A stretch of 64,000 nt of DNA, taken from NCBI GenBank assembly GCA_002897715.1, contig BDUA01000009.1, positions 9,540-73,539 on the forward strand, written 5' to 3'. Below are positions 6,426-64,000 of this stretch, in pieces. This DNA comes from a bacterium BMS3Abin01. Lineage in GTDB: Bacteria > Actinomycetota > Thermoleophilia > BMS3ABIN01. Position numbers and translations under genes: made by a program. The notes under the pieces were generated by a model. It was not told where the DNA came from, did no database searches, and saw only the letters and a program-made list of their open reading frames with translations. Within the stretch, counting starts at the first letter, position 1. Every line of letters starts with the position of its first letter.

Positions 6426-6528
6426 CCGTGACAGCCTCTGCCGCCTGGCTTGGCGGTGCGCGGCCAGTCGGGAGGCCCGGCTGCCGCCGGTGCGCGAGAC
6501 GCCGGGGCCGCGGCCTGCGTGGTTATAT

Positions 6529-7140
6529 CTACGTCTGACGGTAAAGCCCTTCCTTGTCGATGAACTGCTCAACACCCACCGGCACCAGGTAGCGAATCGA
6601 CATCCGCCGCCGCACCCGCTCCCTGACCAGGCTGGAGGAAACACCGATAGCCGGGATCTCCATCACCTTCACCCGATCCTGCCGGGAGAACCTGCCGGTT
6701 ATCTCCGACAGACGGTCAAGCGGGTAGCCGGGCCGCGTTGCGGCGATGAGGTTCGCCATCCGCAGAAGCTCCTCCGGATCCTTCCAGCCAAGGATCTCCA
6801 GCACGGCGTCGGCGCCGGTTATGAAATAAAGCTCCACGCCGGCTTTCTCCTCCCGTAAATAGCGCACGGTGTCCACCGTGTAACACAACTGCTCCTTGTC
6901 CAGCTCATAACGGGATACCTGGAAGCGGGGATTGACCGCCGTAGCGATAACGGTCATGAGGTAGCGGGCCTCGGGGCTGGTTCCACCCTCTATCTCCTTG
7001 TGAGGGGGCAGGCCGGTGGGCATGAAGATGATCTCATCCAGCCCGTACTGGGAGCGGGCCTCCTCGGCGCAAACCAGATGACCGATATGGATGGGGTTGA
7101 AGGTGCCCCCCATGATTCCCAGTTTGGCTATTTTCACCAT
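6529..7140 (-). CDS. nadD: Nicotinate-nucleotide adenylyltransferase
   Basis: GIMGGTFNPIHIGHL (HxGH nucleotidyltransferase motif) and the ISSS-type C-terminal motif (GVSSSLVRE). Confidence 0.9.
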   Translation of the reverse strand: MVKIAKLGIMGGTFNPIHIGHLVCAEEARSQYGLDEIIFMPTGLPPHKEIEGGTSPEARYLMTVIATAVNPRFQVSRYELDKEQLCYTVDTVRYLREEKAGVELYFITGADAVLEILGWKDPEELLRMANLIAATRPGYPLDRLSEITGRFSRQDRVKVMEIPAIGVSSSLVRERVRRRMSIRYLVPVGVEQFIDKEGLYRQT

Positions 7141-7218
7141 GATTGCACCATGTTTACGGAATCAGGACTTATGAGGGCGCCCCGGTGCGCCGCCCCGGTG
7201 GCGGTGCCAGCTCTCCCC

Positions 7219-8478
7219 TCATGTGCGTATCTGGCCATCACCGCTTATCACATATTTTACCGAAGTCAGCTCTTTCAAACCCAATGGCCCGCGGGCGTGG
7301 AGTTTCTGCGTGCTGATGCCGATCTCCGCGCCCATGCCGAACTCGGTGCCATCGGTGAACCTGGTGGAGGCGTTGATGTATATGCAGGCGGCATCCACCC
7401 CGCTGCTGAACCTCCGAGAGTTTTTCAGGTCGTTGGTCACGATCGCCTCTGAATGGCCGGTGCCATAGCGGGCGATATGCTCGATGGCCTCGTCAATACC
7501 GTCAACCACCCTTACGGCCATCTCCAGGTCGAGGAACTCGGTGGCGTAATGCTCTTCAGTGGCATCCGCCACGCCCTCGGTCCCGGCGCCGACAATCTCC
7601 CGGGTGCGCGGACAGGCATAGATCCTGACGCCACGGAGAATCAGTTCCTTCACCACGCCGGGCAGGTAGTCCGGGGCGATGTCACGGTGAACCAGCAGCG
7701 TCTCGGCGGCATTACAGACACCCGGCCGCTGTACCTTGGCGTTTATGGCTATCTCCTCCGCCATCTTCCTGTCTGCCGACGCGTCGATATATACGTGGCA
7801 GTTACCTCCGGCAGCGTATATCACCGGGATGGTGGAGTTCTTCACCAGGAACTCCTTGAGGGCCTCACCGCCGCGGGGGATGATCAGGTCCACGTATTCA
7901 TTCATCTGCAGCAACTGCTTGAGCGGCGCCCGGTCCCGGGACTCCACCAGCGAGACCGCGTCCCGGGGCAACCCGGAATCGATGAGCGCCCCGACGACCA
8001 CCTCGGTGAGCTGGCGGATCGAACGCAGCGAGGCGCTGCCACCGCGCAGTATGACCGCGTTGCCGGTCTTGAGCCCCAGACCGGCGGCATCGATGGTCAC
8101 ATTGGGGCGGGCTTCGTAGATCACCGCTATCACGCCGAAGGGCACCCGCACCTTGTTTATCTGCAGGCCGTTGGGCAGGCGCCAGCCTTCCACCACCTCC
8201 CCCACCGGATCCGGCAGCGCCGCGATACTCTTCAAGCCGGCGGCCATGTCGCTGATACGGTCCTCGTCCAGCATCAGGCGATCCATCAGCGCGTCGGAAA
8301 GCTTGGCCTTCTTGCCATCCCTGATATCGTCACGGTTCTCGCGCAATATCTCCGGAGCGCGCCGCTCCAGGGCTGCAGCTATCTCCATCAGCGCCCGGTT
8401 CTTTTTAGCGGCAGGCAGCGTCGCCAGCTGGTGGGACGCCTCCCGGGCCTTGGCGCAAAGCTTCTCAATCTTTTTCAT
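7219..8478 (-). CDS. proA: Gamma-glutamyl phosphate reductase
   Basis: 419 aa aldehyde-dehydrogenase-fold protein with typical ProA blocks (NAAETLLVH, HSEAIVT). It overlaps the proB stop. Confidence 0.95.
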   Translation of the reverse strand: MKKIEKLCAKAREASHQLATLPAAKKNRALMEIAAALERRAPEILRENRDDIRDGKKAKLSDALMDRLMLDEDRISDMAAGLKSIAALPDPVGEVVEGWRLPNGLQINKVRVPFGVIAVIYEARPNVTIDAAGLGLKTGNAVILRGGSASLRSIRQLTEVVVGALIDSGLPRDAVSLVESRDRAPLKQLLQMNEYVDLIIPRGGEALKEFLVKNSTIPVIYAAGGNCHVYIDASADRKMAEEIAINAKVQRPGVCNAAETLLVHRDIAPDYLPGVVKELILRGVRIYACPRTREIVGAGTEGVADATEEHYATEFLDLEMAVRVVDGIDEAIEHIARYGTGHSEAIVTNDLKNSRRFSSGVDAACIYINASTRFTDGTEFGMGAEIGISTQKLHARGPLGLKELTSVKYVISGDGQIRT

Positions 8479-9622
8479 CGCTGTAGCTGTCCCTTCCTTC
8501 CCGTTGTTCCATCAGGACGAAATAATCCCGGTGGATGACCTCCTCCTTGCCACAGGGCATAAGCTTCATCACCTGCTGGCTCCGCATCCCCTTGATGCGC
8601 TTGAGTTCCTCGGATGAGTAGTTGGTCTTGCCCTTGCCTATCAGCCGGCGGACACCCTGCTGGTGAACGATATCAACGGCCTCGCCGGCGGCGAAATCGC
8701 CTTCCACACCCACGATGCCGGCGGGCAGCAAGCTCTTGCCACCCCGGGAGAGAGCCTTTGCCGCACCAGCGTCCACGCTGACGGTGCCGCGGCTGGGCAG
8801 CCCGTACTTGAGCCATAGTTTGAAGCTGCTGATGGTAGCCCTGGCCGGCGGGAACCGGGTGCCTACCTTCTCTCCAGCCATGACGGCGGCAATAACACCC
8901 GAGCGGGAGCCGTTGGCTATCACCACCTCGATATCAGCCGATGTCGCCATCTCGGCAGCCACTACCTTGCTTTTCATGCCGCCGGAACCCATGGCGCTGA
9001 CGGCGCCGCCGACCTCTATCTCCTCCAGCGCCGACCAGTCGCTGACCTCTTCGATCAACCTGGCGTGGGGATCGACTGAGGGGTCACTAGTATATAACCC
9101 CTCGGTGTCCGTCAGCAATATCAGCCGGTCCGCCTTCACCAGGATCGCCACCTGCGCCGCCAGGAAGTCGTTGTCACCGTAGCGGATCTCGTCCGTGGAG
9201 GTCGTATCGTTCTCATTGATGACGGGGATAACGCCCCATTCCATCAGCTTCAGCAGGGTGTTTCTGGCGTTGAGATACTGGCTGCGCCCGGCGATGTCGA
9301 AGGATGTGAGCAGGATCTGGGCGGTGATGATATCGTGACCGCGGAACAGTTGGTAATAGCGGTGGTACAGACGCCCCTGACCGATGGCGGAAGTAGCCTG
9401 CAGTTCGACGACGGTCTCATTTAATTTCCCGGCTTTGGGCAGCAGGCCCAGGCCCGAAGAGATGGCGCCGGAAGACACCAGCAGCACCCGGTGGCCCTGT
9501 TTCGCCAGAGCGGCCAGCGCCGAAACACGCTCGGCCATGACATCGTCACGTATGCGTCCCCGATTGTCGGTAAGGGTGTTACTACCGATCTTTACTACCA
9601 GGACAGATGGCTGTGATGCCGT
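8465..9622 (-). CDS. proB: Glutamate 5-kinase with PUA domain
   Basis: Amino-acid kinase fold plus C-terminal PUA. The conserved N-terminal VVKIGSNTLT lies upstream of the first ATG (9538). There is no ATG/GTG/TTG in frame back to the stop at 9716-9718. AAGGAG sits at 9634-9629, so the start is near-cognate (ACG 9622, or CTG 9628/9601); exact start uncertain. Confidence 0.88.
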   Translation of the reverse strand, partial: TASQPSVLVVKIGSNTLTDNRGRIRDDVMAERVSALAALAKQGHRVLLVSSGAISSGLGLLPKAGKLNETVVELQATSAIGQGRLYHRYYQLFRGHDIITAQILLTSFDIAGRSQYLNARNTLLKLMEWGVIPVINENDTTSTDEIRYGDNDFLAAQVAILVKADRLILLTDTEGLYTSDPSVDPHARLIEEVSDWSALEEIEVGGAVSAMGSGGMKSKVVAAEMATSADIEVVIANGSRSGVIAAVMAGEKVGTRFPPARATISSFKLWLKYGLPSRGTVSVDAGAAKALSRGGKSLLPAGIVGVEGDFAAGEAVDIVHQQGVRRLIGKGKTNYSSEELKRIKGMRSQQVMKLMPCGKEEVIHRDYFVLMEQREGRDSYSDEKD

Positions 9623-9633
9623 CTCCAGCTCCT

Positions 9634-10920
9634 TTAATTGAAGGGTGCCGCCGACGGCGCCAGGTCGCCGGTCTCCACCCGCTTGATATCGGCGCCCAGC
9701 ACCTGCAGCTTCTGTTCAAAGTTCTCGTAGCCGCGATCGATATGACCGATGCGGCGCACTTCGCTCTCCCCGGACGCGGCCAGCCCCGCCAGCACCAGCG
9801 CCGCCCCGGCACGCAGGTCAGGCGCCTCCACGATCGCCCCCTCCAGACGGCTCTGGCCGTGAACCACCGCATGATGGCCGCTGGTGCGCACATCCGCCCC
9901 CAGGCGGTTCAACTCGTCCACGAAACCGAAACGGTTCTCGAAGACGTTCTCGGTGACGATGCTGTGGCCCTGGGCCAGGGACAGCAGGACTATCACCGGT
10001 GCCTGCAGGTCCGTGGGAAATCCGGGATAAGGCAGGGTGGCGATGTCGGTGCCGTGGTACGCCTCCGCGGCGCGGCAATGGATGCGGTCATCGCGCTCGT
10101 CGATGGCGGCGCCTATAGCCCGCATCTTGCTTATGAACATCTCCAGGTGCCTGGGGTTGGCTCCCTCTATCTCGATATCGCCACCGGTAACCGCCGCCGC
10201 CAGCATGAAGGTGCCGGCCTCGATGCGGTCGGGAATCACCGTGTGGGTTGCGCCGTGGAGTTCATCCACGCCGTCGATGACGATGGTTTCCGTGCCGGCG
10301 CCGCTGATGCCGGCCCCCATGGAGGTGAGGAACTTGGCAAGGTCGATCATCTCCGGTTCGCGGGCGGCGCTCTCGATAACGGTCCGCCCCCTGGCCAGGC
10401 AGGCGGCCATCATCAGGTTTTCGGTAGCACCGACGCTGGGATAGTCGAGACTGATGACGTCCCCGGTGAGGCCGTTGGTTGCCACGTTGATGAAGCCGTG
10501 ATCCGCATGGATGCGGGCGCCCAGCTTCTCCAGACCGTTGAAATGGAAATCCAGCTTGCGGGGGCCGATGTTACAACCGCCGGGCATGGCCACCCGGGCC
10601 CGGTGCAATCTGGCCAGCAGCGGCCCCATCACCGTGATGGAGGCACGCATCTTGCGCACCAGTTCATAAGGAGTGGTATGGGACAGCTTGCCGGAAGGGT
10701 CGATCTCCACGCGGTCGGGAGTAATGATTACCGTAGCGCCGATGGCTCTGAGCACGTCGGCCATGGTATAGACGTCGTTTATCAGGGGGACATTGTAGAG
10801 GACCGACTTCCCGGTAGTGAGAAGGGAGGCAGCCATGAGCTTCAGGGCGGAGTTTTTGGCCCCGGATACCCTGACCGTGCCGACCAGGGGAACCCCCCCC
10901 GTTATCTGGTACTTGAACAT
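9634..10920 (-). CDS. murA: UDP-N-acetylglucosamine 1-carboxyvinyltransferase
   Basis: 428 aa with typical MurA blocks (VSGAKNSALKLMAA, PGGCNIGPRKLD containing the catalytic Cys). Confidence 0.95.
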   Translation of the reverse strand: MFKYQITGGVPLVGTVRVSGAKNSALKLMAASLLTTGKSVLYNVPLINDVYTMADVLRAIGATVIITPDRVEIDPSGKLSHTTPYELVRKMRASITVMGPLLARLHRARVAMPGGCNIGPRKLDFHFNGLEKLGARIHADHGFINVATNGLTGDVISLDYPSVGATENLMMAACLARGRTVIESAAREPEMIDLAKFLTSMGAGISGAGTETIVIDGVDELHGATHTVIPDRIEAGTFMLAAAVTGGDIEIEGANPRHLEMFISKMRAIGAAIDERDDRIHCRAAEAYHGTDIATLPYPGFPTDLQAPVIVLLSLAQGHSIVTENVFENRFGFVDELNRLGADVRTSGHHAVVHGQSRLEGAIVEAPDLRAGAALVLAGLAASGESEVRRIGHIDRGYENFEQKLQVLGADIKRVETGDLAPSAAPFN

Positions 10921-45343: not shown

Positions 45344-47869
45344 ATGATTAGAACAACACGCCGGAACTTTTTGAAGCTGGGCATGGCCAGCGGCGCTCTT
45401 CTGGCTGCGGGAGAAGTCATCGGTTGCGGCCAGGAGTCCCTGACCGGGACCGTATCGCTGGAGCCGGGAGGCAAGGATTTTTCCCCGAAGACCGGGGCTG
45501 AACGGACCGCCATCCCCACCGCCTGCTGGAACTGTGTCACCCGTTGCGCAGCCATTGGTTTCGTCGAAGATGGCCGGCTGGTAAAGATGGAGTCCAATCC
45601 CGATTCCATCAGGACCGAGGGCAAGATGTGCGCCAAGGGACAAGCGGGTCCCAACCACGTGTACGACCCCGACAGGGTGCTCTACCCCATGAAGCGGGTC
45701 GGACCCCGCGGCGGCGGGCAGTGGCAGAGGCTCTCCTGGGATGCAGCACTCACGGAGATAGTGGATCATATCAAGCCGCTGCGCGATGCGGGAACGCCGG
45801 AAAAATTCATGTTCCACTACGGCAGGATGAAGGCCAGCTCCAGCAAGCTAGTAAAAAGCAGCTTCCTGCATACATTCGGCACCGAGACCATCGGCAACCA
45901 CACCTCTATCTGCGAGGGCGGTAAGTGGGTGGCCCAGGAGCTTACCTGGGGCAAACATTATGACAGCTGGGACTTCGATAATACCGGTTTCGTGCTCAAC
46001 TTCGGCAGCAATGTGTTTGAGGCTCATACCAATCATATCCCCACGTCTCCAAGGCTGATCAGAGCCATGACCGACCGGGGTGTAAGGCTGATCACCTTTG
46101 ACGTAAAGCTCTCCAATACGGCCGCCAAATCCAGCGAATGGATACCCATTAAACCGGGAACCGACGGTGCGGTGATGCTGGCCATGTGCAACCATATCAT
46201 TAGCAATAACCTGCATGACCGGGATTTCCTCGACTACGTCAAGGCAACGGGCGACCCCGATGCATCAACGGAAGAAAAGGAAGATTCCCTGCGCAACCAT
46301 CTGGACCGGTTCACCCCCGAGTGGGCGGAGGGCATCAGCGGCATCAGCGCAGATAAGATAAAAGCCGTAGCGGAAGATTTCGCCACTACCAAGCCGGCCT
46401 GCCTGATAACCTACCGGGGGGCTGTAGCCCACTATTGCGGCGCCGAGAACGAGCGTAGCGCCATGATGCTGGCCTCGCTTACCGGTAACATCGATAACCC
46501 CGGCGGCAGGTGCAAGGCAGTGGGCGCCTCCTGGGAATACCCCAAGAGCCCCGACCCGCCGGAGAAGAAGGGCCTGAAGATCCTAAACGGCTTCCCGGGA
46601 CAGGTGGCCTTCCCCAATCACCATGTAAGCAACCAGATACTGAAGATGATAAAAGACGGCAGCGCCGGCAGGCCCGAGGTATATATGTGGTACTGCCATA
46701 CGCCAGTATTCGCCAACGGCGAAGTACAGGAGAACATCGACGTCCTTAAAGATGAGAGCATGCTCCCGTACTCCATTTGCATCAATCCCTTTTATGATGA
46801 ATCGGCAGCGCTGGCGGATCTCATTCTTCCGGACGCCACCTATCTGGAGAGATGGGACAGCGAGGACATGGTCTCTCCAACCCAGGTAGCGGAATACTAC
46901 ATCCGCCAGCCGCTGGTAGAACCGCTTTGCGGTATCAAGTCCTTCGCCGATGTGTGCTTCGATCTGGCGGACAGGATGGGCATGCCGCTGTTCGAGTCCG
47001 AAGGGATCAACTCCATGGAGGACTTTGTCCGCTATGCCTGCGAAAACACCACGGGGGTACCGGGCTTCGATTACATGAAGCAAAACGGTGTCTGGCACGA
47101 TCCGGAGGCCGAGCCCAAGTACTACTCCTACAAGAAGGATATGGGCACGGATGAGGATCTCATCGCCGGCAGCTACACCCTCGATCCGGGGGGAACCGGC
47201 GTTTGGTGGAAACAGCCCAAGGAGGACGCCAGGTACGGCGACGACAAGCATGACTATAAAACCTACAAGGCCCAGAAGCTGGCGGACGGCACCAATGTCT
47301 CCGGTTTTAAACCAGACAAGATCAATAAATCCGGTTTCATGGAACTGTATTCGGAGCTCCTTGCCGGCAAGGACTATTCAGCCTTGCCTAGCTATTACCC
47401 GATACCGGAGCATCAGAATATGTCTGCGGGCCAGCTTGTCCTGACAACCTATAAGGTTGCCGTGCAGACCCATTCCCGCAATGCGAACTGCAAGTGGCTG
47501 AGCGAACTGTTCCATGAAAACCCCGGATGGATCCATCCGGATACGGCCGCGTCACTTGGTATCGGTGATGGAGACACCGTCAGTGTTACCTCCTCGGTGG
47601 GTTCTTTCAAGACGAAGGCCCGCGTGACCAAGGGCATTATCCCCGGCGCTATTGCGGTCTCCCACCATCTGGGACACTGGCAGTACGGCCGCTACGCATC
47701 GGGCAACCCTTCCCCGGATCCGCAACCGGCCGAATGCAGACCGGAGGCCGAGCAACATTGGTGGAACACTTACGGCGTGCGTCCCAACTGGGCCATACCG
47801 AACTCTCCCGATCCCATCAGCGGCCAGCAACGCTGGATGGATACGGTAGTAACGGTTACAAAGATCTGA
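45344..47869 (+). CDS. Tat-exported molybdopterin (bis-PGD) oxidoreductase catalytic subunit, Psr/Phs/Arr/Ttr-like; substrate unknown
   Basis: Twin-arginine signal TRRNFLKLG and a canonical FS0 motif CWNCVTRC-x27-C. Also HTSICEGG and PIKPGTDGAVMLAM blocks. 841 aa. Confidence 0.9.
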   Translation: MIRTTRRNFLKLGMASGALLAAGEVIGCGQESLTGTVSLEPGGKDFSPKTGAERTAIPTACWNCVTRCAAIGFVEDGRLVKMESNPDSIRTEGKMCAKGQAGPNHVYDPDRVLYPMKRVGPRGGGQWQRLSWDAALTEIVDHIKPLRDAGTPEKFMFHYGRMKASSSKLVKSSFLHTFGTETIGNHTSICEGGKWVAQELTWGKHYDSWDFDNTGFVLNFGSNVFEAHTNHIPTSPRLIRAMTDRGVRLITFDVKLSNTAAKSSEWIPIKPGTDGAVMLAMCNHIISNNLHDRDFLDYVKATGDPDASTEEKEDSLRNHLDRFTPEWAEGISGISADKIKAVAEDFATTKPACLITYRGAVAHYCGAENERSAMMLASLTGNIDNPGGRCKAVGASWEYPKSPDPPEKKGLKILNGFPGQVAFPNHHVSNQILKMIKDGSAGRPEVYMWYCHTPVFANGEVQENIDVLKDESMLPYSICINPFYDESAALADLILPDATYLERWDSEDMVSPTQVAEYYIRQPLVEPLCGIKSFADVCFDLADRMGMPLFESEGINSMEDFVRYACENTTGVPGFDYMKQNGVWHDPEAEPKYYSYKKDMGTDEDLIAGSYTLDPGGTGVWWKQPKEDARYGDDKHDYKTYKAQKLADGTNVSGFKPDKINKSGFMELYSELLAGKDYSALPSYYPIPEHQNMSAGQLVLTTYKVAVQTHSRNANCKWLSELFHENPGWIHPDTAASLGIGDGDTVSVTSSVGSFKTKARVTKGIIPGAIAVSHHLGHWQYGRYASGNPSPDPQPAECRPEAEQHWWNTYGVRPNWAIPNSPDPISGQQRWMDTVVTVTKI

Positions 47870-54479: not shown

Positions 54480-54544
54480 AAAAAACTCTCCTCGCTGTTG
54501 CGAAAAGAGTAACGGCTGCCAGGGCGCCACCCGGCGCTCCGCCT

Positions 54545-54660
54545 CAATGCGTTTCTCCTTTCCAAACACGGGAGGCCTGCCGGTTTCCCAACAAACCCTG
54601 TCGGCGTCTTGTCCTAGCCTTTTCCTGCCGACCTTAGACCCAGACGCTCGGAGAATTACT
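54545..54660 (-). promoter_or_regulatory. Moco (moaA-motif) riboswitch candidate
   Basis: The minus strand reads CUCCGAGC (54653-54646)...GCGUCU/AGACGC and GGUUU/AAACC stems...GGCCUCCC...UGGAAAGGAG (to 54555). These match my memory of the conserved Moco-motif blocks. It lies in the leader of a transporter + Moco biosynthesis operon. Confidence 0.65.
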
Positions 54661-54673
54661 ATGTGTTTAAACT

Positions 54674-54882: not shown

Positions 54883-55827
54883 ATGCATACCGAGCCTGAC
54901 CCTTCACTAAACCGTCATAGTGTCCGCCTGCTGATATCGTTGGCGTTGCTTGTAATGACTTTGTTTCCACTTGCCGGCTGTTCCAGTCAAGAGGATGAAG
55001 CGCCGCCCATTGAAACCGCGACCGTTTCGGACGAAACCATACGTGTCTCCATTGCCGGTATTATAACCCCCAAGGAGACCTACTCCCAGTACTCCGAACT
55101 ACTGGACTATATTTCCAGAAGAACGGGCCACCCCACGGTGCTGGAACAGACCGGAACCTATATGGGGGTGAACGACAGCCTGGCGCGGGAAGAGATTGAC
55201 GTGGCGTTCATGTGCTCCGGCGGCTACGAAGAAGCTTCGCACCACATCGGCATCAAACCGCTGGTGGCGCCGGTCATCAACGGCGAGGCGGTTTATCACG
55301 CCTATATCATCGTCCGCAGCAATAGCGGCATCACCAGCTTCGACCAGTTGCGCGGCCGTCGTTTCGCCTTCACCGATCCCCTGTCTCTCACCGGCACCAT
55401 ATACCCGTCTTCCCGGGCTATCGAGAGCGGTAACAGCCCGGATGAGTTTTTCAGCGATTTTATCTTCACCTACAACCACGACAATTCCATCAAGGCCCTC
55501 CAGGAAAACGTGGTGGACGGCGCCTCCGTCGACAGCATCATCTTTGATTCCCTCAAGGCCAATCATCCTGAAAGCGTCGAAGGGTTGAGCATCATCGAAA
55601 CCTCGAAGCCGTTCGGTTCACCGCCCATCGTCACGCGCCGCGGCATGGCGGAGGAAGAGCGCCGACAACTGTTGGATGTGCTGACCGGCATGGATGAGGA
55701 TCCGTGGGGGAAAGAGATCCTCACGGCCATGGGCATCGACCGCTTCATTGCAGTTGATAATTCTCATTATGATGCCGTCCGGAAGCTGGAGGGTAAACTC
55801 AGCAGCGGTCCCGGCGGCTCGGGATGA
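54883..55827 (+). CDS. PhnD-like (phosphonate-type) periplasmic substrate-binding lipoprotein
   Basis: Lipobox LFPLAGCSS and the YHAYIIVRSNSGITSFDQLRGRRFAFTDPLSLTG pattern of the Phosphonate-bd family. Start chosen at MHTEPD. Confidence 0.8.
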   Translation: MHTEPDPSLNRHSVRLLISLALLVMTLFPLAGCSSQEDEAPPIETATVSDETIRVSIAGIITPKETYSQYSELLDYISRRTGHPTVLEQTGTYMGVNDSLAREEIDVAFMCSGGYEEASHHIGIKPLVAPVINGEAVYHAYIIVRSNSGITSFDQLRGRRFAFTDPLSLTGTIYPSSRAIESGNSPDEFFSDFIFTYNHDNSIKALQENVVDGASVDSIIFDSLKANHPESVEGLSIIETSKPFGSPPIVTRRGMAEEERRQLLDVLTGMDEDPWGKEILTAMGIDRFIAVDNSHYDAVRKLEGKLSSGPGGSG

Positions 55828-55828
55828 T

Positions 55829-57334
55829 ATGAAAGGGTTTCTGGGGAGAATCACTGACATGAGCCTGGGCAGGAAGGTGGCGGGCGTGCTGGCCCTGGCT
55901 ATCATCCTCTCGGGCGTCACCGTTTCGGCCTTCGGCACATATCGCATGCGCAACCTGCTGATTGAGCAGAAGCTCGATTCCTCGCTCCAGATATCACGTT
56001 CCCTGGCGTCATCGGCACTCCCCGATATCCTCAACAACGATTTCGTGGCGTTACAGGACAGCACGGACCAGATCCTGGCTTACGACAGCGAACACGAGAT
56101 CGTCTTTGTCGGTATCTTCGACAGTGAAGGCAAGCCCCTGGTGCGGTCATCGCGTAGCGGCGATAATCTGGCCCCGCCCGAAGGCGAGAATGTCAGACGG
56201 GTAACCGTACCCATCACCTTCAATGACAGGAACTTCGGGCACGTGGATCTCTATTTTTCCCTCGACCGCATCGAGAGTGAGGTACTGGGCACCATAGTTT
56301 CCCTCGGGAGCATCCTGGCATTCGTAGTTATCGTTGCAGCCGTGCTTATGGCGCTCCTGGCCTATTCGGTAGTAGTGAAACCTGTAGTGCGTCTGGGCAG
56401 AAGCGCCCGCGAGATCTCGGAGGGGAACCTGGACCTGGAGATCCCCGTCAACTCCGGCGATGAGATCGGCCGGCTCTCGGAGGATTTCAATATCATGGCT
56501 CGCAACCTCAGGCAGCATCACCAGGAGCTTGCATCCGCATATTCCAAACTGGAAAGGAACTACGAGGCGACCCGCGACGCCTACCGGCGCCTGCAGGAAC
56601 TGGACCAGATGAAGTCCAAGTTCATTACCGTGGTCTCGCACGAGCTGCGCACGCCCCTGGCGTTGATCCGCGGCTACGTGGAGACCATAGAAGCGGGAAC
56701 CATGGGACCGCTGACCGTAAAACAGAAGGATAAACTGGGCATCGTTCTCGACAGTGTGGACCGTCTTGCCGGCATCGTGGACAAGTCGCTCGACTTCTCA
56801 TTGATTGAACAGGGCAAACTGATCACGGAGAGAGAGCCGCTGCAGCTTGCCGATATTCTCAACCAGGTGGCGGATGAGTTCTCCCTTGAGCTGCCGCGCC
56901 GGGGGCTGCGCTTTGAAGAGGACATCCCTTCCCGTCTGCCCCTGGTGAGCGGCGACCGCATCAGATTACATCAGGTCTTCCATAACCTGATCTCCAACGC
57001 CATGGATTTCACGCCGGAAGGCGGTGCGTTGGGGATGAGGGCTCACTGTGATCACGACAGGGAGAACATCCTCGTGGAGGTGTGGGATGCGGGTACCGGG
57101 ATACCGGAAGAAGAACTGGAGAACCTCTTTTCGCCCTTCTATCAGGTTGATAGCCCCGTAACCCGGAAGCGCCCGGGTGTTGGACTGGGGCTGGCCATCG
57201 CCAAGGGTATCACGGAAGAGCACGGCGGCAGCTTGTGGGTTGAGAGCAAGCCGGGACAGGGTACGGTCTTTTCCTTATCCCTGCCGACAATGAACGGAAA
57301 TAACGGCTATCGTAATATTGAGGAGGATGCATGA
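55829..57334 (+). CDS. Sensor histidine kinase (2 TM, periplasmic domain, HAMP, HisKA, HATPase_c)
   Basis: HAMP (VKPVVRLGRSAREISEGNLD...DEIGRLSEDFNIMARNL), H-box SHELRTPL and G-boxes (DAGTGIP, GVGLGLAI). It starts 1 nt after the SBP stop. Confidence 0.9.
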   Translation: MKGFLGRITDMSLGRKVAGVLALAIILSGVTVSAFGTYRMRNLLIEQKLDSSLQISRSLASSALPDILNNDFVALQDSTDQILAYDSEHEIVFVGIFDSEGKPLVRSSRSGDNLAPPEGENVRRVTVPITFNDRNFGHVDLYFSLDRIESEVLGTIVSLGSILAFVVIVAAVLMALLAYSVVVKPVVRLGRSAREISEGNLDLEIPVNSGDEIGRLSEDFNIMARNLRQHHQELASAYSKLERNYEATRDAYRRLQELDQMKSKFITVVSHELRTPLALIRGYVETIEAGTMGPLTVKQKDKLGIVLDSVDRLAGIVDKSLDFSLIEQGKLITEREPLQLADILNQVADEFSLELPRRGLRFEEDIPSRLPLVSGDRIRLHQVFHNLISNAMDFTPEGGALGMRAHCDHDRENILVEVWDAGTGIPEEELENLFSPFYQVDSPVTRKRPGVGLGLAIAKGITEEHGGSLWVESKPGQGTVFSLSLPTMNGNNGYRNIEEDA

Positions 57335-58062
57335 TGGCAAGAAAAGTCCTGGTCGTCGACGACGAGCCGGGAATCTGTGATCTGGTTTGCCTCAACCTGG
57401 AAAGCGAAGGATACGAAGTTACCTGTGCCAACAGCGGGCATGAGGCCATGGAAAAAATAAAAAGGGAACACCCCGACCTGATAGTGCTCGATATCATGAT
57501 GCCCGAGATCGACGGCTGGGAGGTGCTGTCCCACCTCAAGGCCGATCCGGCCACCAGCGGCATCCCGGTGATACTTTTATCCGCCAAAAGCGAAGAGGTA
57601 TCCAAACTGCTCGGCTTCAAGCTGGGAGCGGATGACTACGTTACCAAGCCTTTCAGCGTCAAGGAACTGACGGCCAGGATAGGTATCGCTATCACGCGCG
57701 ACAGGGAAAACCACAAGGCCGCCGCCGGGCCGGAGCAACGCATCGCGGCCTACAGGGATAACGAGCTTTATTTCCTGAACCCTGAGGACATCCTCTTCGC
57801 CGTCGCGGACAGGAATTATACCTATCTCTGCACCGGCGGCGAACGTTTCGTCATCCGTCGCAACCTCAGTGCCGTCGAACAGAAGCTGCCGGAGAACTTC
57901 AACCGGATCCACAAGAGCTATATAGTCAACATCGACCGTATAAGCAAGCTCTTCTCCCCGGCACGTGGCCGATACCTGGTAGAACTCGACGACCCCGATA
58001 GTTCCCGGATTCCCGTAAGCCGCGGCAAGGCGGCGGCACTGCGCCAGCGCTTGAAGCAATAA
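57331..58062 (+). CDS. Response regulator, receiver + LytTR DNA-binding domain
   Basis: KVLVVDDEP...LDIMMPEIDG receiver domain. C-terminal IHKSYIVNIDRI...IPVSRGK LytTR pattern. ATGA overlap with the kinase stop. Confidence 0.9.
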   Translation: MMARKVLVVDDEPGICDLVCLNLESEGYEVTCANSGHEAMEKIKREHPDLIVLDIMMPEIDGWEVLSHLKADPATSGIPVILLSAKSEEVSKLLGFKLGADDYVTKPFSVKELTARIGIAITRDRENHKAAAGPEQRIAAYRDNELYFLNPEDILFAVADRNYTYLCTGGERFVIRRNLSAVEQKLPENFNRIHKSYIVNIDRISKLFSPARGRYLVELDDPDSSRIPVSRGKAAALRQRLKQ

Positions 58063-58446: not shown

Positions 58447-59391
58447 ATGGGCCGGAACAATACCAAAGGATCAAACCGGGAGGTGAAGGAATTGGATTTC
58501 AAGAAAATCGCAGCAGTTATAGCTATCGCGTCGGCGCTAACACTGGTTGTCGGATTCAGTGCGTTATATGCCTCTTCGGCGCCGCCGGATAACCCGCACT
58601 ACAGCTACACGGAATGTGTATCCTGCCATTCAGATCAGATCGACTACCATAGTGATGCCGCTTCACACGCTTATTCCGAATGCATCAGCTGTCATGGCGA
58701 CAGGACTGACGAGGTCTCGCAATACGATGCCGCGCACAGTCAGTATTTCGATGGTCCCCACAAGCTGCACTTGACCTCAGACTTACTGTCTTTCAACTGC
58801 ACTGAGTGCCATGTCTCCGTGGATATCCGCGAACAGGACGGTGCATCGGTCAGGCGGCAGGTATCGATGGTTTGTGCTGACTGCCACAGCCCCTTCCCCA
58901 GCAAGATGGACTCAAGCTGGGCGTCTGAGGACTGCACCGGTTGTCATAGTGACTGGGAGACAAAACACGCGGGAACACCCTACCTGAACAACAGCAATAT
59001 CAATCCGGGTGATTGTTACGGTTGCCACGGCGGCAGAGCATTCTACTTCTCCGGTGCCGCGGCGCTGACGCTTTCACGAGGCGCAGTCTACTGGGCCAGC
59101 ATGGCTGACTACGAGGCCGCGCTCCTGTCCGTCGATTTCAGCATCACTAACGCGGGTCCGGGTACGGCCAACGATGCAGCCATCACTTATGTGAGCGCCG
59201 GCAACGGCGTCAGTGCCGTCACTGGTCTGCCCCTGGCCCTGGGCTCCATCCCCCAGGATAGCTCATCCGACTTCACGCTGGTGTACAGCGTACCCACAGG
59301 CGCCGGTTCATTCATGACGACCCTGTACGCCCAGGCTATCAATGACGACGGGGAGACCCAGTACTGGCCGTCTCCGCCGCCGGGCAGTTGA
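58447..59391 (+). CDS. Membrane-anchored hexaheme c-type cytochrome with C-terminal beta-sandwich-like domain
   Basis: Six CxxCH motifs (CVSCH, CISCH, CTECH, CADCH, CTGCH, CYGCH) follow one N-terminal TM helix. An alternative TTG start at 58492 lies 6 nt after GGGAGGTG. Confidence 0.85.
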   Translation: MGRNNTKGSNREVKELDFKKIAAVIAIASALTLVVGFSALYASSAPPDNPHYSYTECVSCHSDQIDYHSDAASHAYSECISCHGDRTDEVSQYDAAHSQYFDGPHKLHLTSDLLSFNCTECHVSVDIREQDGASVRRQVSMVCADCHSPFPSKMDSSWASEDCTGCHSDWETKHAGTPYLNNSNINPGDCYGCHGGRAFYFSGAAALTLSRGAVYWASMADYEAALLSVDFSITNAGPGTANDAAITYVSAGNGVSAVTGLPLALGSIPQDSSSDFTLVYSVPTGAGSFMTTLYAQAINDDGETQYWPSPPPGS

Positions 59392-59446
59392 TGACATTGA
59401 CACAGTCGACGGAAGCACGGACGAATCAGCAATCAGGGGGGATGAC

Positions 59447-59608
59447 ATGAACAGGAACAAGCAAAAAAGCACAAGCGGCAACGGGGTGAATGCGCACCTG
59501 GAATATCAGGCGCCCAGGCTGACTCGCTGCGGCAACGTCAGGGAAGTCACCTTCGAGTGTTCCAACTGGCAGTGCAGCGTCACCGTACCGCCGCCGCCAG
59601 AGTCGTAA
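59447..59608 (+). CDS. 53-aa small ORF with lasso-RiPP-type leader motif (YxxPxLx3Gx5Tx) and Cys/Pro-rich C-terminus
   Basis: MNRNKQKSTSGNGVNAHLEYQAPRLTRCGNVREVTFECSNWQCSVTVPPPPES. A G-rich SD precedes the ATG. It is co-oriented between the cytochrome and the oxidoreductase genes. Coding status is unproven. Confidence 0.45.
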   Translation: MNRNKQKSTSGNGVNAHLEYQAPRLTRCGNVREVTFECSNWQCSVTVPPPPES

Positions 59609-59673
59609 GCAAATATCAACCACGGCAGTCGCGATGAGGCCGTGAGACGAAGTATGAGAAAGAGGTGAGCTAA

Positions 59674-62268
59674 ATGACAAAAGAGAAAGGTAAAGCCGGG
59701 GTTCTCGGCATCAATCCGAGCATTTCCCGCCGCTCCTTCATCAAGTGGGGCGGAACGGTAAGCGGCGCGGCCGTTGCCAGTTCCCTGTTACCGGGAGGCC
59801 TGTTAAAACAGGTCTTCGATACCGAGCAGGCCAAAGCAGCAGGCGGCACCTGGACTTATACCGCCTGCAACATGTGTGGCGGCCAGAGCGGTATCAAGGT
59901 GAATGTGGAAGGCGGCACCGTCAAGAAGATCGAGCCCAGCGGATTCAATCCCGCCGGCGTCACCAACATCTGCACCGACAACGCCAACGACCCCTCGGAT
60001 TTCCTCCATACGGACTGGGGCGGCTGCATGTGTCCCAAGGGCAACGCGGGGGTCAAGTCGCTCTATGACCCCGACAGGCTGATGACCCCCATGAAGCGCC
60101 GTGCGACTTCACCGCGAGGCGCGGGAGCCATCTGGGACCCCATCAGTTGGGATGACGCACTCAACGAGGTCAAGAGCAGGCTGGAGGAGATCGCGTCAGC
60201 AACGGGCGGCTATACCGGAGCCCATCAGGTCCTGTGGTTTGGTGAGGATCACTCCTTCACCCATCCTCAGAAGGACTTCTGCAAGATGTACGGCACGCCC
60301 AACTACATGAATCACTCCAACCTCTGCGACACGGGCCGCAAGCGGATCTTCAGCGTGCCCATGGGTGACGAACGTCCCATTCCCGACTACGCGCATGCCA
60401 AGTACGCGCTGGTCTTCGGCTGGAACTTCCTGGCGGCAACCAAGTGGTCGCACCTGCCCCGTATCGCACGGCAGTTCTTCGACAACGGTGGCCGCATGGT
60501 TCTCGTCGATCCCGTCTTCAGCAACACGGCGGCGGCGGCAAGGCGCAACGGTGGTGAGTGGGTACCCATCAAGCCGGGTACGGACGGCGCCCTCGCATTA
60601 GCCATGGCCTACGTGATCATCAACGAGAGCAGGTATGACGCTGCTTTCGTGGGCAGTAATGTGATCGGCTTCTCCGAGTACAGCGACTACGTGAACGGGC
60701 TCGGCAGCGACAGCACCGCCAAGACGCCCGCATGGGCGGAAGCCAAGACCGGCATACCTGCCGCCGATATCGAGCGCCTGGCGCGCGAGGTATCCGACCC
60801 TGGTAACCATCCGGCCATCATCGACTGCTGGTCCGGACCGGGGCAGCATACCAACGCTGTCCAGGGCGGCCGCGCCATCTCGGCACTTATGGCGCTAACC
60901 GGCCAGATTGGTGGTGCCGGCAACATGGTGTTCGCTCACAAGAAAGGCAACAAGCACCGCACTATCGTCAAGTCCCTGTCCTCGCTCTCGAGGCCACGGG
61001 TCGACGGAAAGGGCTACCCTGTTTCACAAAACGGATACCCCTTGGCGCACGGTTCGGGCATCTACGTGCGGGCGCGGGACGTCATGTATGATTCCGACCT
61101 GTCCGCGGCGGCATACTGGGCCAAGTACCCTTACCTGGGCGCCTCGGAAGCCGAGGCGGATGAAAACCGGCCCAAGGCGGCGGTATTCGTCTTCCAGAAC
61201 TGGGTGATGTCTGTGCCCAACACTCAGAAGAACATCGATGCCCTCAACAAGCTGGACTTCATCGTGACCATAGACACACACCTGAGCGAGACCGCCCAGA
61301 TGTCCGACATCATCCTGCCGGGCTCCAACTACCTGGAGCGCTACGACTTCACCGGCAACTGGGTGACTTTCTACAGCACCAGCCTGCGGCAACCGGTGGT
61401 CAACTCCTGGATCGGCAACCCCTACGGTTATGAGGCAGGGACGATCATGGAACTGGGACGCAGGATGGGTCTCAGCGGCGACCCGGGCAGCACACCGCCC
61501 GGTGACTTCAATATGACCTACGAACAGTACCTGGGGCAGGAACTACTGCTTCAATCCACCATCAAGGCCTCCCTCTACCCCTCGGGGGACCCCAGCAACC
61601 TGGCGGATTGTGACGCAGCCCTCAATGCCATGAAGGCGCTGCCCGGTGCCGTGTGGCCTTCGGCGGCCGAGCTTCAGGCTAATGTCGCCACCTGGGGCAC
61701 CCAGTACGGCAACATCAGCAAGCTCAAACGCAAGAGTGACAGCAGACAGATAATAGTACTCAATTCCTACTCGGGCACGGACGACGGTTCCGGTAACGCC
61801 GACGAGATAATCGGCTACCACTCCCTGGAGACCGCCGGTTACGACGCTCTGCCGGTATACGCCGACCCGGTGGACACGCCAGCCAACACGCCTGGGTATC
61901 CGCTCCACCTGGTCAACTGGAAGCAGTCGGAGCATACCCATTCGCGGACGCACAACAACATCTGGCTGATGGAGATGAAGGGAACCAACCCGGTCTACAT
62001 CAACACGGCCACGGCTTCCGGGCTGGGTATAGTCGACGGCGATGCCATCACGGTGGAATCACCATACGCAACCGTCAACGGCACTGCTTTCGTTACCGAA
62101 GGCATCCAGCCCGATACTGTCGGTATGCTGCATGGCTTCGGACACACGGCGCTGGGCACCATCGCTCAGGGTAAGGGCACATCTGACGGAGCGCTTCCTC
62201 CCGGCAAGGCGGAAGCGATATCCGGCCAGGCCTGCCACAAGGAAGTCGCCGTGAAAGTCTACAAGTGA
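59674..62268 (+). CDS. Tat-exported molybdopterin (bis-PGD) oxidoreductase catalytic subunit, paralog of 45344-47869; substrate unknown
   Basis: Twin-arginine signal SRRSFIKWGG and N-terminal cluster region CNMCGGQS...NIC...GGCMCPKG. Also HSNLCDTG and PIKPGTDGALALAM blocks. 864 aa. Confidence 0.9.
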   Translation: MTKEKGKAGVLGINPSISRRSFIKWGGTVSGAAVASSLLPGGLLKQVFDTEQAKAAGGTWTYTACNMCGGQSGIKVNVEGGTVKKIEPSGFNPAGVTNICTDNANDPSDFLHTDWGGCMCPKGNAGVKSLYDPDRLMTPMKRRATSPRGAGAIWDPISWDDALNEVKSRLEEIASATGGYTGAHQVLWFGEDHSFTHPQKDFCKMYGTPNYMNHSNLCDTGRKRIFSVPMGDERPIPDYAHAKYALVFGWNFLAATKWSHLPRIARQFFDNGGRMVLVDPVFSNTAAAARRNGGEWVPIKPGTDGALALAMAYVIINESRYDAAFVGSNVIGFSEYSDYVNGLGSDSTAKTPAWAEAKTGIPAADIERLAREVSDPGNHPAIIDCWSGPGQHTNAVQGGRAISALMALTGQIGGAGNMVFAHKKGNKHRTIVKSLSSLSRPRVDGKGYPVSQNGYPLAHGSGIYVRARDVMYDSDLSAAAYWAKYPYLGASEAEADENRPKAAVFVFQNWVMSVPNTQKNIDALNKLDFIVTIDTHLSETAQMSDIILPGSNYLERYDFTGNWVTFYSTSLRQPVVNSWIGNPYGYEAGTIMELGRRMGLSGDPGSTPPGDFNMTYEQYLGQELLLQSTIKASLYPSGDPSNLADCDAALNAMKALPGAVWPSAAELQANVATWGTQYGNISKLKRKSDSRQIIVLNSYSGTDDGSGNADEIIGYHSLETAGYDALPVYADPVDTPANTPGYPLHLVNWKQSEHTHSRTHNNIWLMEMKGTNPVYINTATASGLGIVDGDAITVESPYATVNGTAFVTEGIQPDTVGMLHGFGHTALGTIAQGKGTSDGALPPGKAEAISGQACHKEVAVKVYK

Positions 62269-62287
62269 GAAAGGACGGTGATAAAGA

Positions 62288-62839
62288 ATGGCCGCAAATC
62301 CAAACCAGCTCGGCTTCGAGTTGAACATGATCAAATGCATCGGCTGCAGGGCCTGCGAGGGCGCCTGTAAGCAGCAGAACAATGTGGAAGCGGGAGCCCG
62401 GTGGCGCCGCGTGACGACCTTCCGTGGAGGGACGTATCCGGATCCGTTCACCAACTTCTTGTCGCTGTCCTGTAACCACTGCGAGAAGCCCGCCTGCGCG
62501 GAGGCTTGTCCGGTGGACGCGATAACCAAGAGGGCGAGTGACGGCATCGTTATCCTGGATAGTAACATCTGCAACGGTTGTAAACGCTGCATGGAGGCCT
62601 GCCCCTATGGCGCTCCCCAGTATAACCCGGTCACCAAGAAGGTAGAGAAGTGCCACATGTGTTACGAACGCATCGACAATGGATTGCCGCCGGCCTGTGT
62701 GGAGACATGTATGGCCAGGGTGCTGAAGCACGGGGTGTTATCGACACTCACAGGCGATAACGGCAAGAGCGTCGCTAATTTCGCCAGCCCCAAGTATACG
62801 CACCCGTCCATCCGCATCACGCCGCCGGACCGGCAATAG
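62288..62839 (+). CDS. 4Fe-4S ferredoxin-type electron-transfer subunit (DmsB/PsrB-like), no signal peptide
   Basis: Four cluster motifs: CIGCRACEGAC, CNHCEKPACAEACP, CNGCKRCMEACP, CHMCYERIDNGLPPACVETC. Confidence 0.9.
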   Translation: MAANPNQLGFELNMIKCIGCRACEGACKQQNNVEAGARWRRVTTFRGGTYPDPFTNFLSLSCNHCEKPACAEACPVDAITKRASDGIVILDSNICNGCKRCMEACPYGAPQYNPVTKKVEKCHMCYERIDNGLPPACVETCMARVLKHGVLSTLTGDNGKSVANFASPKYTHPSIRITPPDRQ

Positions 62840-62859
62840 AGATAAGGAGGAGAATAAAT

Positions 62860-63531
62860 ATGGGGATCATAGACGACGAGACAATGGATACACGGACGCA
62901 GACGCGGATCGTCGTCTATGATCTCCTGCGCCGTGTGTTCCTGCACGAGCCAACGGTGGAATTCTCCAGGCGCCTGGATGAAAGTAACCTGCTTGAGGAG
63001 CTATTCGAATTGCCGGGCATCAAAAAGATGCATTCCTGTATCCAGCCTATCCTCAAATCAGGAGACATCGATGACGCCCAACAGGACTTCTACCAGCTGT
63101 TCCTGGGGCCCAGGCGCCTGAAGGCCCCTCCATGGGAATCAGTCTACCGCTCCCAGTTGAGACTGGTGAACCAGGAATCAACCGCGGAGGTGCGCTGCCT
63201 GTACGCGCAATACGGTTTCCAGACAGAGGAGGGACAACTCGAGGACCATTTCGGCACGGAATGCGACTTCCTCCACAGGCTCTGCATGATGATCAAGGGC
63301 TCCAGCACTGAACAGATTGCGGACCTGATGAAGGTACAGAAACATTTCGTCAGTGAGCATCTGGTCAAATGGGTGCCGGGCTTCGCCATGGATATCAGGC
63401 ACAATGCCCGGACCCCTTTCTTCCGGGGAATGGGCGAGTTCATCGATTACTGGATCTGGACCGAGCACTATTACCTTAACGAGGTTGTTCATGGTGCCGG
63501 TGACTCCACACAACAAAAGGGCAGGTGTTGA
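62860..63531 (+). CDS. TorD/DmsD-family redox enzyme maturation chaperone
   Basis: DFYQLFLGPRRLKAPPWESVY motif; operon position after the A and B subunits. Confidence 0.8.
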   Translation: MGIIDDETMDTRTQTRIVVYDLLRRVFLHEPTVEFSRRLDESNLLEELFELPGIKKMHSCIQPILKSGDIDDAQQDFYQLFLGPRRLKAPPWESVYRSQLRLVNQESTAEVRCLYAQYGFQTEEGQLEDHFGTECDFLHRLCMMIKGSSTEQIADLMKVQKHFVSEHLVKWVPGFAMDIRHNARTPFFRGMGEFIDYWIWTEHYYLNEVVHGAGDSTQQKGRC

Positions 63532-63535
63532 CAAG

Positions 63536-63784
63536 ATGTTTGGTCTAGGTTGGCAGGAGCTTGTGATTGTCCTGGGTATCGCTCTACTCATTTTCGGCAC
63601 TAAACGTCTACCTGAAGTGAGCCGCTCCTTGGGCGGAGCGATCAAAGAGTTCAAGGCGGGCGCTCTCGAACGAGCGAATGGCAGTGCAACCGTCGAGAGT
63701 GAAGCGAAGCTCGAAGAAGCTTCCGGCGCCACTGACGAGAGCCAGAGCTGTCAAGCGGCTGAGAAAGGTGTTTTTCGAAGCTGA
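63536..63784 (+). CDS. tatA: Twin-arginine translocase subunit TatA/E
   Basis: MFGLGWQELVIVLGIALLIFGTKRLPEVSRSLGGAIKEFK (TM helix + amphipathic helix). The track ORF starts earlier in the same frame. Confidence 0.9.
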   Translation: MFGLGWQELVIVLGIALLIFGTKRLPEVSRSLGGAIKEFKAGALERANGSATVESEAKLEEASGATDESQSCQAAEKGVFRS

Positions 63785-63832: not shown

Positions 63833-64000
63833 ATGTGTGAAACCAACCAGGAGACCATACCCATCAAAGACGCCATAGGCACCATCCTCGGTCACGATAT
63901 TACCGAGGTGAACACCAGCACGGGATTCAAGGGTTGCCGCTTCCGGCGCGGCCACGTCATACGGGAAGAGGATGTCCCCCGGTTCCTCGAGCTGGGAAAG
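63833..64000 (+). CDS. Molybdopterin-binding (MoeA/MoCF-type) protein, 3-prime partial at window end
   Basis: AAGGAGG lies before the ATG. N-terminus IPIKDAIGTILGHDITEV...FKGCRFRRGHVIREEDVPRFLELGK resembles the N-terminus of clostridial molybdopterin-binding proteins (from memory). Only 56 codons are visible. Confidence 0.5.
   Translation, partial: MCETNQETIPIKDAIGTILGHDITEVNTSTGFKGCRFRRGHVIREEDVPRFLELGK

Follow-up and report, generated by a model that had tools for sequence, protein, structure and literature searches.

Respiratory enzymes of the Psr, Phs, and Ttr types and many Arr enzymes use an NrfD/PsrC quinol subunit. In the TorCAD/DorCAD, NapAB(C), and PcrABCD systems, a co-encoded multiheme cytochrome c and a TorD-like chaperone replace the membrane quinol subunit, and the anchor-less ArrAB of Shewanella ANA-3 is fed by a multiheme cytochrome, the tetraheme CymA. 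Here we analyze a locus built on the latter principle in bacterium BMS3Abin01 (Actinomycetota, Thermoleophilia), an operon beginning at 58447 of a 64,000-nucleotide stretch (the window, positions 9540 to 73539 of contig C9) of a 1.5-Mb, 86% complete metagenome-assembled genome (MAG; G000). It encodes a hexaheme cytochrome c, a 53-amino-acid (aa) peptide, the catalytic subunit (A) and the iron-sulfur (FeS) subunit (B) of a molybdenum or tungsten enzyme, a TorD chaperone, and TatA. The feature is a cytochrome-coupled periplasmic Mo/W enzyme with an arsenic lead and with an unexpected lineage-specific cassette attached to it. We consider it fairly probable that the whole is an extracytoplasmic respiratory oxidoreductase wired through cytochrome c to an arsenate-like oxyanion as the acceptor; the catalytic direction, the metal (Mo or W), the electron-entry step, and the substrate proposed below are predictions from sequence.

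The six genes are all on the plus strand and tightly packed, with intergenic gaps of 55, 65, 19, 20, and 37 nt from the cytochrome gene to tatA, and neither promoter-like nor terminator-like sites were found on that strand within the operon. Open reading frames (ORFs) and domains agree with the gene list, orientation, and close spacing given in a preliminary description of this DNA. The membrane-anchored cytochrome (58447-59391; 314 aa) has six CxxCH motifs and matches Cytochrom_c3_2 and C7, and the peptide ORF after it (59447-59608) belongs to a multicopy family. Subunit A (59674-62268; 864 aa) is the catalytic protein for a Mo/W-bis(pyranopterin guanine dinucleotide) (bisPGD) cofactor, with Molybdopterin, Molydop_binding, and Fe4S4 domains and a twin-arginine translocation (Tat) signal at residues 17 to 35 (motif SRRSF), while subunit B (62288-62839; Fer4_11, 1.8e-30) is a four-cluster ferredoxin without a signal peptide; export of A by Tat with B as a signal-less hitch-hiker had been proposed and fits these features. 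The TorD/NarJ-family maturation chaperone (62860-63531; PF02613, 2.2e-29, 102.7 bits versus a cutoff of 22.2) is encoded next to its Tat-dependent Mo enzyme, as TorD/NarJ maturation proteins are. TatA (63569-63784; PF02416, 1.8e-11), called a dedicated copy in the preliminary description, is the sole TatA found in the assembly, and TatC was not found in this 86% complete assembly. The PsrC/NrfD/DmsC-type partner is indeed missing, and the operon carries a multiheme cytochrome c instead. An NrfD or DmsC anchor gene was found neither in the operon nor in the 1.8 kb of contig past the window end, where the preliminary description had allowed for one. NrfD proteins are encoded only at other loci of the genome, on contig C21 (beside another Mo enzyme) and on C40, and no DmsC was found anywhere in the genome.

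This arrangement had been described as orphan and its electron input as non-standard; the relatives of the enzyme contradict both words, and coupling to a multiheme cytochrome is the part that stands. Orthologs of subunit A with 67 to 73% identity occur in only three of the 19 genomes searched from its GTDB family and in one Thermoleophilia-labeled MAG, and uncultured Nitrospirota, Armatimonadota, Chloroflexota, and other lineages supply hundreds of proteins with 42 to 48% identity. We sampled this clade as 80 metagenomic loci plus three assembly loci. A homologous tri- or pentaheme cytochrome gene lies directly upstream of A-B-TorD in about 40 of the 80 metagenomic loci, and such loci often continue with FmdE, MoCF_biosynth, and a PhnD-like solute-binding protein (SBP); about 18 have the order B-NrfD-A, and the rest have A-B with neither cytochrome nor NrfD. 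In two trees the clade is monophyletic (100/100), and its three subclades match the three gene-order architectures. The window subunit A falls inside the cytochrome-type subclade (99/97), where it groups with loci L013 and L078 at 100/100, and every scorable member of that subclade has the order multiheme cytochrome-A-B-TorD(-FmdE-MoCF). Since loci of the cytochrome type, the window's among them, make up a single well-supported subclade, the cytochrome-first, anchor-less order is the norm for its uncharacterized clade.

The same comparison bears on the extent of the operon, which had been drawn as ending at tatA (63784). A MoCF_biosynth-domain gene (349 aa) begins in the window (63833..64000 [+]) and runs past its end, and the 1.8-kb remainder of the contig holds the rest of this gene, a gene for an FmdE plus Zn-ribbon protein (232 aa), and, on the opposite (minus) strand, a TupA-like gene. 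As the MoCF_biosynth and FmdE genes continue downstream of tatA, the operon reaches beyond 63784; both follow TorD in at least 12 clade loci and are part of the conserved locus.

Subunit A lies outside every curated characterized family tested, in keeping with the preliminary description. Its NCBIfam scores all stay below the respective cutoffs (PhsA, 301 versus 694 bits; DmsA/YnfE family, 235 versus 778; ArrA, 147 versus 1600; TtrA, 92 versus 1750), and the equivalog cutoffs for PhsA, ArrA, TtrA, and DmsA are reached by no clade member; other members score 395 to 418 bits with the PhsA model NF012032 (cutoff, 694 bits). The ArrA cutoff of 1600 bits is strict for Arr only, and a genuine ArxA scores just 431 bits. 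Subunit B likewise remains below the cutoff of the DmsB-type model TIGR02951 (174.8 versus 214 bits). The putative Mo/W ligand is Cys218 (60325-60327), which aligns with the ligand Cys of PsrA and ArrA. The ArrA pattern H189/S190/C193/K198 is kept as H-S-x-x-C-x4-K, with H214, C218, and K223 in the window motif NHSNLCDTGRK. The FS0 site is atypical (C65-x2-C68-x3-S72...C120; 59866-59889) and follows a clade-wide motif, C-N-M-C-G-G-[QT]-[ST]-G, in which Ser/Thr replaces the third Cys of other families in all three subclades. This replacement suggests a [3Fe-4S] or Ser-ligated cluster as a clade trait.

With Arr the enzyme shares the Tat-exported, Cys-ligated subunit A, the hitch-hiker FeS subunit B, the TorD-type chaperone, and the H-S-x-x-C-x4-K pattern, and with the ANA-3 ArrAB the proposed supply of an anchor-less AB by a multiheme cytochrome. 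However, subunit A is outside the Arr/Arx family by score, WF[GS]EDH takes the place of RGRY, the third FS0 Cys is Ser/Thr, the cytochrome is unlike NapC/CymA and has its gene within the operon, and the adjacent regulator has a LytTR output. In TorCAD/DorCAD, NapAB(C), and PcrABCD, the principle is the same, but their catalytic subunits come from unrelated families (Nap-type, or with a Ser or Asp ligand) and their cytochromes share no homology with the one here; TorC and NapC belong to NapC/NirT, unlike the window cytochrome. PsrABC and PhsABC provide the best hidden Markov model (HMM) and solved-structure matches and have the Cys ligand and the periplasmic AB architecture in common with the window enzyme, whereas their NrfD-type C subunit is lacking here, identity is about 25 to 30%, and the regulator is of a different type.

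That affinity raises the alternative of a sulfur-compound reductase (for thiosulfate, polysulfide, or tetrathionate), with low-potential c-type cytochromes as electron donors in the manner of sulfate reducers, which we regard as rather improbable. PhsA is the best curated HMM, Thermus PsrA (2VPW; 187 bits) is a better match among solved relatives than Shewanella ArrA (6CZ7; 127 bits), and JGI labels some of the relatives “thiosulfate/polysulfide reductase.” In addition, a cytochrome donor would suit the very low potential of thiosulfate, and the B-NrfD-A order of sister subclades resembles ttrBCA. Yet identity to Salmonella PhsA is only 25 to 26%, all family scores are far below cutoffs, and PhsA is placed outside the clade in both trees, outside even the clade plus its sister group (95/89). 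In the small tree, that sister group (95/89) includes the enzyme of Azoarcus KH32C and a genuine ArxA along with paralogs from the BMS3Abin01 genome itself; the references were PhsA, DmsA, one ArxA, and the Azoarcus enzyme. Phylogeny had been named as the check on a Psr/Arr/Ttr-like assignment: with few characterized references in the trees, it sets the enzyme apart from PhsA and places it inside a large uncharacterized clade rather than with a characterized family.

The lead toward arsenic comes from the genes upstream. XSR modules have been described only beside aio, arx, and arr operons, and each X protein binds the substrate of its own enzyme (PMC5908839). A contiguous or overlapping trio with this arrangement ends 385 nt upstream of the operon on the plus strand. 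It consists of an ArrX/AioX-type sensor SBP, a lipoprotein with an LAGC lipobox (X; 54883..55827; PF12974, 4e-58), a HAMP histidine kinase whose start is 1 nt past the SBP stop (S; 55829..57334; HAMP, HisKA, and HATPase_c), and a response regulator with LytTR output that overlaps the kinase stop (R; 57331..58062; Response_reg and LytTR). The layout is that of ArrXSR of Chrysiogenes arsenatis, and the trio lies directly upstream of the cytochrome operon also in L013, L014, L026/L061, and L078, an adjacency conserved in four genomes. The best solved relative of the SBP, the only ArrX-type SBP in this genome, is C. arsenatis ArrX (6X6B; 206 bits, 36% identity), well ahead of other solved periplasmic binding proteins (AioX, 97 bits; PtxB, 65; PhnD, about 39). 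Of the pocket residues defined for AioX, ArxX, and ArrX (PMC5908839), Y88, C106, Y131, S161, S163, H192, and D210 of AioX correspond here to Y, C, Y, S, T, H, and D, so that six of the seven are identical and one is conservatively changed (S163 to T); the Cys106 that distinguishes the AioX subfamily from PhnD is kept. Among 13 SBPs encoded next to loci of the clade, 11 have this pocket signature if Thr is accepted for Ser163, and they cover all three subclades. We thus predict an ArrXSR/AioXSR-type arsenic-oxyanion sensor that would bind arsenate or arsenite, and the ArrX-like SBP, the shared pocket, and the conserved XSR adjacency make an arsenate-like oxyanion the substrate lead.

As a positive control, plasmid matches to the SBP led to two loci of known type, in Sulfuricella and in Azoarcus sp. 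KH32C; the former is a textbook arxB'ABCD-arxXSR locus. The latter (L172; plasmid pAZKH, 53000-70000) contains arsA-acr3, a divergent sigma-54 regulator, a kinase, and an AioX-type SBP, followed by FeS, NrfD, Mo enzyme, and TorD genes. Its Mo enzyme has Y-G-R-N-R-T-G, like the “Arx-like” motif of Methanoperedens, and Asp at the third FS0 position; it is an annotated, arsenic-linked, and apparently uncharacterized enzyme. The sensor region of the window kinase is similar to that of the kinase beside a B-NrfD-A clade member (L085). A likeness of the kinase to ArxS was discarded, the alignment being limited to the generic catalytic core.

If the enzyme were a sulfur reductase, the PhnD-like sensor would respond to a sulfur oxyanion, like TtrS and ThsS. 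The SBP is far closer to ArrX than to other solved binding proteins and has Cys106, and thiosulfate and tetrathionate are not bound by ArrX, AioX, or ArxX in vitro (PMC5908839). The same sensor also bears on a reversed direction of catalysis, in which an anaerobic dehydrogenase of arsenite, antimonite, or another reduced oxyanion would feed a cytochrome c chain, comparable to Aio or Arx, whose electrons go to cytochromes or quinones. Mo enzymes that lack an anchor and pair with a soluble cytochrome often act as dehydrogenases (Aio and Ddh), the acidic WF[GS]EDH might fit neutral As(OH)3 better than an anion, and the small tree puts the clade sister to the ArxA-containing group. The SBP is nearest to the arsenate-binding ArrX, however, and not to the arsenite-binding AioX or ArxX; the hosts belong to lineages of strict-anaerobe type, no obvious high-potential acceptor chain is encoded beside the operon, and c3/c7-type cytochromes usually have low potentials. 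We hold this oxidative role to be very unlikely. The NaoABC antimonite oxidase (PMC11521347), considered as a relative, proved Nap-like and unrelated.

Several points weigh against an arsenate-like acceptor. The position that holds RGRY in ArrA and GRGWG in ArxA (ANA-3 residues 163 to 168), motifs with substrate roles in Arr and Arx, respectively (PMC13685797), is occupied by the acidic WF[GS]EDH, in the window WFGEDH, and the top-scoring curated HMM is PhsA and not ArrA. A sulfur substrate is plausible because the organism is predicted to be a sulfate or sulfite reducer. XSR pocket residues alone do not fix ligand specificity (PMC5908839), and the SBP comparison covered solved binding proteins such as ArrX, AioX, PtxB, and PhnD but no TtrS/ThsS-type sensors. 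The tree rests on few characterized references, so that the sister-group placement of the clade is provisional. Finally, ars genes (arsR, arsD, arsA, and acr3) flank three clade loci, but three of about 83 is not clearly above chance.

Respiration of an arsenate-like oxyanion remains the reading we prefer, and it can be cast as the following mechanism. TorD would aid cofactor loading of subunit A, with its Cys-ligated Mo- or W-bisPGD and three-Cys-plus-Ser FS0 cluster, and Tat would export the folded subunit with the signal-less, four-cluster subunit B aboard, as family knowledge suggests for both steps. Outside the membrane, AB would exchange electrons with the multiheme cytochrome c of the operon, which would stand in for the NrfD/PsrC quinol subunit. 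Electrons from menaquinol would enter this cytochrome through a NapC/NirT-type cytochrome of the genome or, less likely, by direct menaquinol oxidation. The adjacent ArrXSR-type sensor would control operon expression; inducer and terminal electron acceptor would most likely be arsenate or a chemically similar oxyanion.

The electron-entry step turns on the nature of the hexaheme cytochrome. In the AlphaFold2 (AF2) model, a signal-anchor helix with a 22-residue hydrophobic segment covers residues 18 to 41 (58498-58569); the six CxxCH motifs occupy residues 57 to 194 (58615-59028), the first of them 13 residues past the hydrophobic segment, and a beta-sandwich C-terminal domain (CTD) follows at residues ~203 to 314 (59053-59388). 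Hemes 2 to 6 are homologous to those of the pentaheme cytochrome of locus L083, and hemes 2 to 4 are homologous to those of the triheme cytochromes of the clade. The homologs in diderms are small and soluble, with short cleavable signal peptides; compared with these, the actinobacterial cytochromes add the hydrophobic helix, an extra membrane-proximal CxxCH, and the CTD. The heme domain of the model has low confidence, and a Foldseek search with the model returned for the CTD only generic Ig-like beta-sandwich matches (TRAP subunits and adaptin ears).

The cytochrome might itself be the menaquinol dehydrogenase, a new NapC/NrfH-like module that provides the sole membrane link. Its geometry is that of NapC/NrfH, with an N-terminal transmembrane (TM) helix (residues 18 to 41) and a heme motif close behind (residue 57); the long helix and the extra heme motif occur in actinobacterial orthologs only, and a weak NrfH match spans the helix and four hemes (E = 0.0028). 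The tests for membership in NapC/NirT/NrfH nevertheless fail: there is no match to PF03264, and the score with NrfH (TIGR03153) is 17.7 bits against a cutoff of 134.2. Further, the cytochrome lacks the F-C-x-S-C-H signature seen in the three NapC/NirT-like cytochromes of this genome, and BLAST finds no similarity to them in the region from the TM helix to heme 1. The soluble diderm homologs, moreover, must take their electrons from another protein. Direct menaquinol oxidation therefore appears doubtful to us, and because of the failed membership tests we lean, by no wide measure of confidence, toward a relay from a NapC/NirT-type quinol dehydrogenase. The genome has genes for such cytochromes on contigs C6 and C21 as well as a CcsA-type system for cytochrome c maturation. 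The C21 locus (3290-10276) encodes a 12-heme cytochrome, FeS, NrfD, a Mo enzyme, TorD, and a 7-heme NapC/NirT-like cytochrome, and it is a possible electron source for the anchor-less enzymes.

The CTD and the 53-aa peptide have a distribution of their own. Six-frame and HMM searches located the CTD at no fewer than 17 places in this genome and the peptide in seven copies, while word-indexed protein searches with either returned only the query or its orthologs, and neither belongs to a Pfam or NCBIfam family. The peptide is present in all 13 searched genomes of the window's family, with 6 to 12 copies in each; the 67 genomes searched from nine further families of this class yielded none. A degenerate-pattern scan found it at 64 loci in about 17 Actinomycetota MAGs, and it is conserved in orthologous loci. 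At most loci the gene before that of the peptide has a product with a homolog of the CTD (residues ~200 to 314 of the window cytochrome) at its C-terminal end. The N-terminal parts of these products are unrelated secreted domains (rhodanese, YVTN propeller, FG-GAP, EB_dh, and monoheme cytochrome), and some products have no further domain, as in the 153-aa proteins encoded beside tatA-tatC. The cassette sites include the one in the window (59053-59608) and, in this genome, C11:39922-40430, C47:3965-4488, C49:73514-73787, C42:6-116, and C41:22815-22931. The main tat locus of the relatives L062 and L069 has, in this order, genes for a CTD-only protein and the peptide, two tatA genes, and tatC. 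A further peptide copy (C49:30075-30305; also in L058, L065, L079, L053, L023, and L025) has no CTD gene before it and is convergent to hemC-hemA-precorrin-2 dehydrogenase genes and the ccsA/resB genes of cytochrome c biogenesis, an arrangement conserved across several genomes.

The preliminary description had counted the small peptide as part of the respiratory operon and the beta-rich C terminus as peculiar to it. Neither view survives, as the peptide belongs to a lineage-wide multicopy family and the CTD belongs to a repeated lineage-specific cassette. Since both are parts of this lineage-wide cassette, neither is evidence of an unusual mode of respiration; their presence labels the cytochrome as one of the envelope proteins that the lineage has adopted. 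The CTD model is a beta-sandwich of high confidence (predicted local distance difference test score, 94 to 98), and the peptide is predicted by AF2 to be unstructured. Peptide copies are about 45 to 55 aa long, with a leader (Y-x-x-P-x-L...N-L-K-x-I-T-F) and a near-invariant core (E-C-x-x-W-Q-C-S-V-x-V-P-P-P-P). Entropies of 0.37, 0.24, and 0.97 at the three codon positions, and the use of several synonymous codons for invariant residues, indicate strong purifying selection at the protein level.

The peptide is probably a precursor of a ribosomally synthesized and posttranslationally modified peptide (RiPP) and not a respiratory subunit. The lasso leader motif Y-x-x-P-x-L-x3-G-x5-T-x is present (Y20...T35-F36), and with Lasso_leader_L3 (NF033521; cutoff, 19) the window peptide scores 18.6 bits and an ortholog 19.3. 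In contrast to lasso cores, the core ECSNWQCSVTVPPPPES has C, S, and V at positions 7 to 9 rather than the Asp/Glu that a lasso ring requires, and a lasso cyclase was not found in the 86% complete assembly. The only PF00733 proteins, two AsnB homologs on C16, were rejected as cyclases and taken for ordinary amidotransferases, as they keep the MCGI amidotransferase N terminus and lie in a polysaccharide-type cluster. A profile search of 1.84 billion proteins gave 48 representative clusters at an E value of ≤0.001, mostly peptides of 34 to 85 aa; the 24 short matches inspected all share the leader, and their cores are mostly of the W-x-C-S type. Two clusters contain candidate RiPP maturation genes. 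One (C14:9469-13172 [-]) encodes an HprK-like kinase, a PqqD chaperone and a B2 protease, both of lasso type (the protease with 44 bits versus a cutoff of 33), and a 12-TM protein (635 aa) to which no family is assigned; the other (C18:14193-17517 [-]) is an SCM-like cassette (HprK-like, PqqD, radical S-adenosylmethionine/SPASM, and S26 peptidase) flanked by CTD proteins. HprK-like genes also come after the peptide in about 10 loci. These genes and the leader are what the system shares with lasso and SCM-type RiPPs, whereas the near-invariant core, the copy number per genome, and the placement nearly always after a CTD-ending gene are unlike them. The peptide could be a binding partner of the CTD or be co-processed with it.

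Elsewhere in the window, an Rfam scan of the 385-nt leader before the cytochrome gene found no riboswitch. The sole Rfam match is a molybdenum/tungsten cofactor (Moco/Wco) riboswitch (RF01055) at 54539-54665 (-), with 73.5 bits versus a gathering threshold of 36, which precedes an operon for a TupBC-like transporter and cofactor synthesis that runs divergently from the sensor genes. The nearby TupA-like, FmdE, and MoCF genes could hint at tungsten use by the enzyme. The window contains a second Mo enzyme (45344-47866 [+]) in a B-A-TorD arrangement, also anchor-less, with a canonical FS0 and with Y-G-R-M-K where Arr and Arx have their substrate motif. Its place in the tree is with the Azoarcus KH32C plasmid enzyme and ArxA, and it may itself be an Arx/Arr-like enzyme.

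Even without a link to arsenic, the analysis delineates a large enzyme branch that automated annotation usually mislabels as thiosulfate/polysulfide reductase and in which one catalytic core is joined to three alternative electron-entry modules. The actinobacterial form is a diderm periplasmic system refitted for a monoderm envelope, with an anchor helix, an extra heme, and a lineage-specific C-terminal domain added, and the domain-plus-peptide cassette is an undescribed, highly repeated trait of a whole bacterial family. More tentatively, the whole clade in its three forms, with its own WF[GS]EDH active-site motif and three-Cys-plus-Ser/Thr FS0 cluster as hallmarks, might be a further unrecognized family of molybdo/tungsto-enzymes that respire arsenic or antimony oxyanions, and the cassette might separately be a new envelope-protein system of one actinobacterial family in which a RiPP-like peptide is the partner of the beta-sandwich CTD shared by secreted proteins. 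If so, the enzyme family would be widespread among the Nitrospirota, Chloroflexota, Armatimonadota, and Actinomycetota of groundwater and sediments and would be missed by arrA/arxA/aioA surveys. As relatives of the enzyme are abundant in aquifer and sediment metagenomes, such surveys would then underestimate the arsenic-mobilizing potential of aquifers and sediments if the clade respires arsenate or a related metalloid oxyanion.

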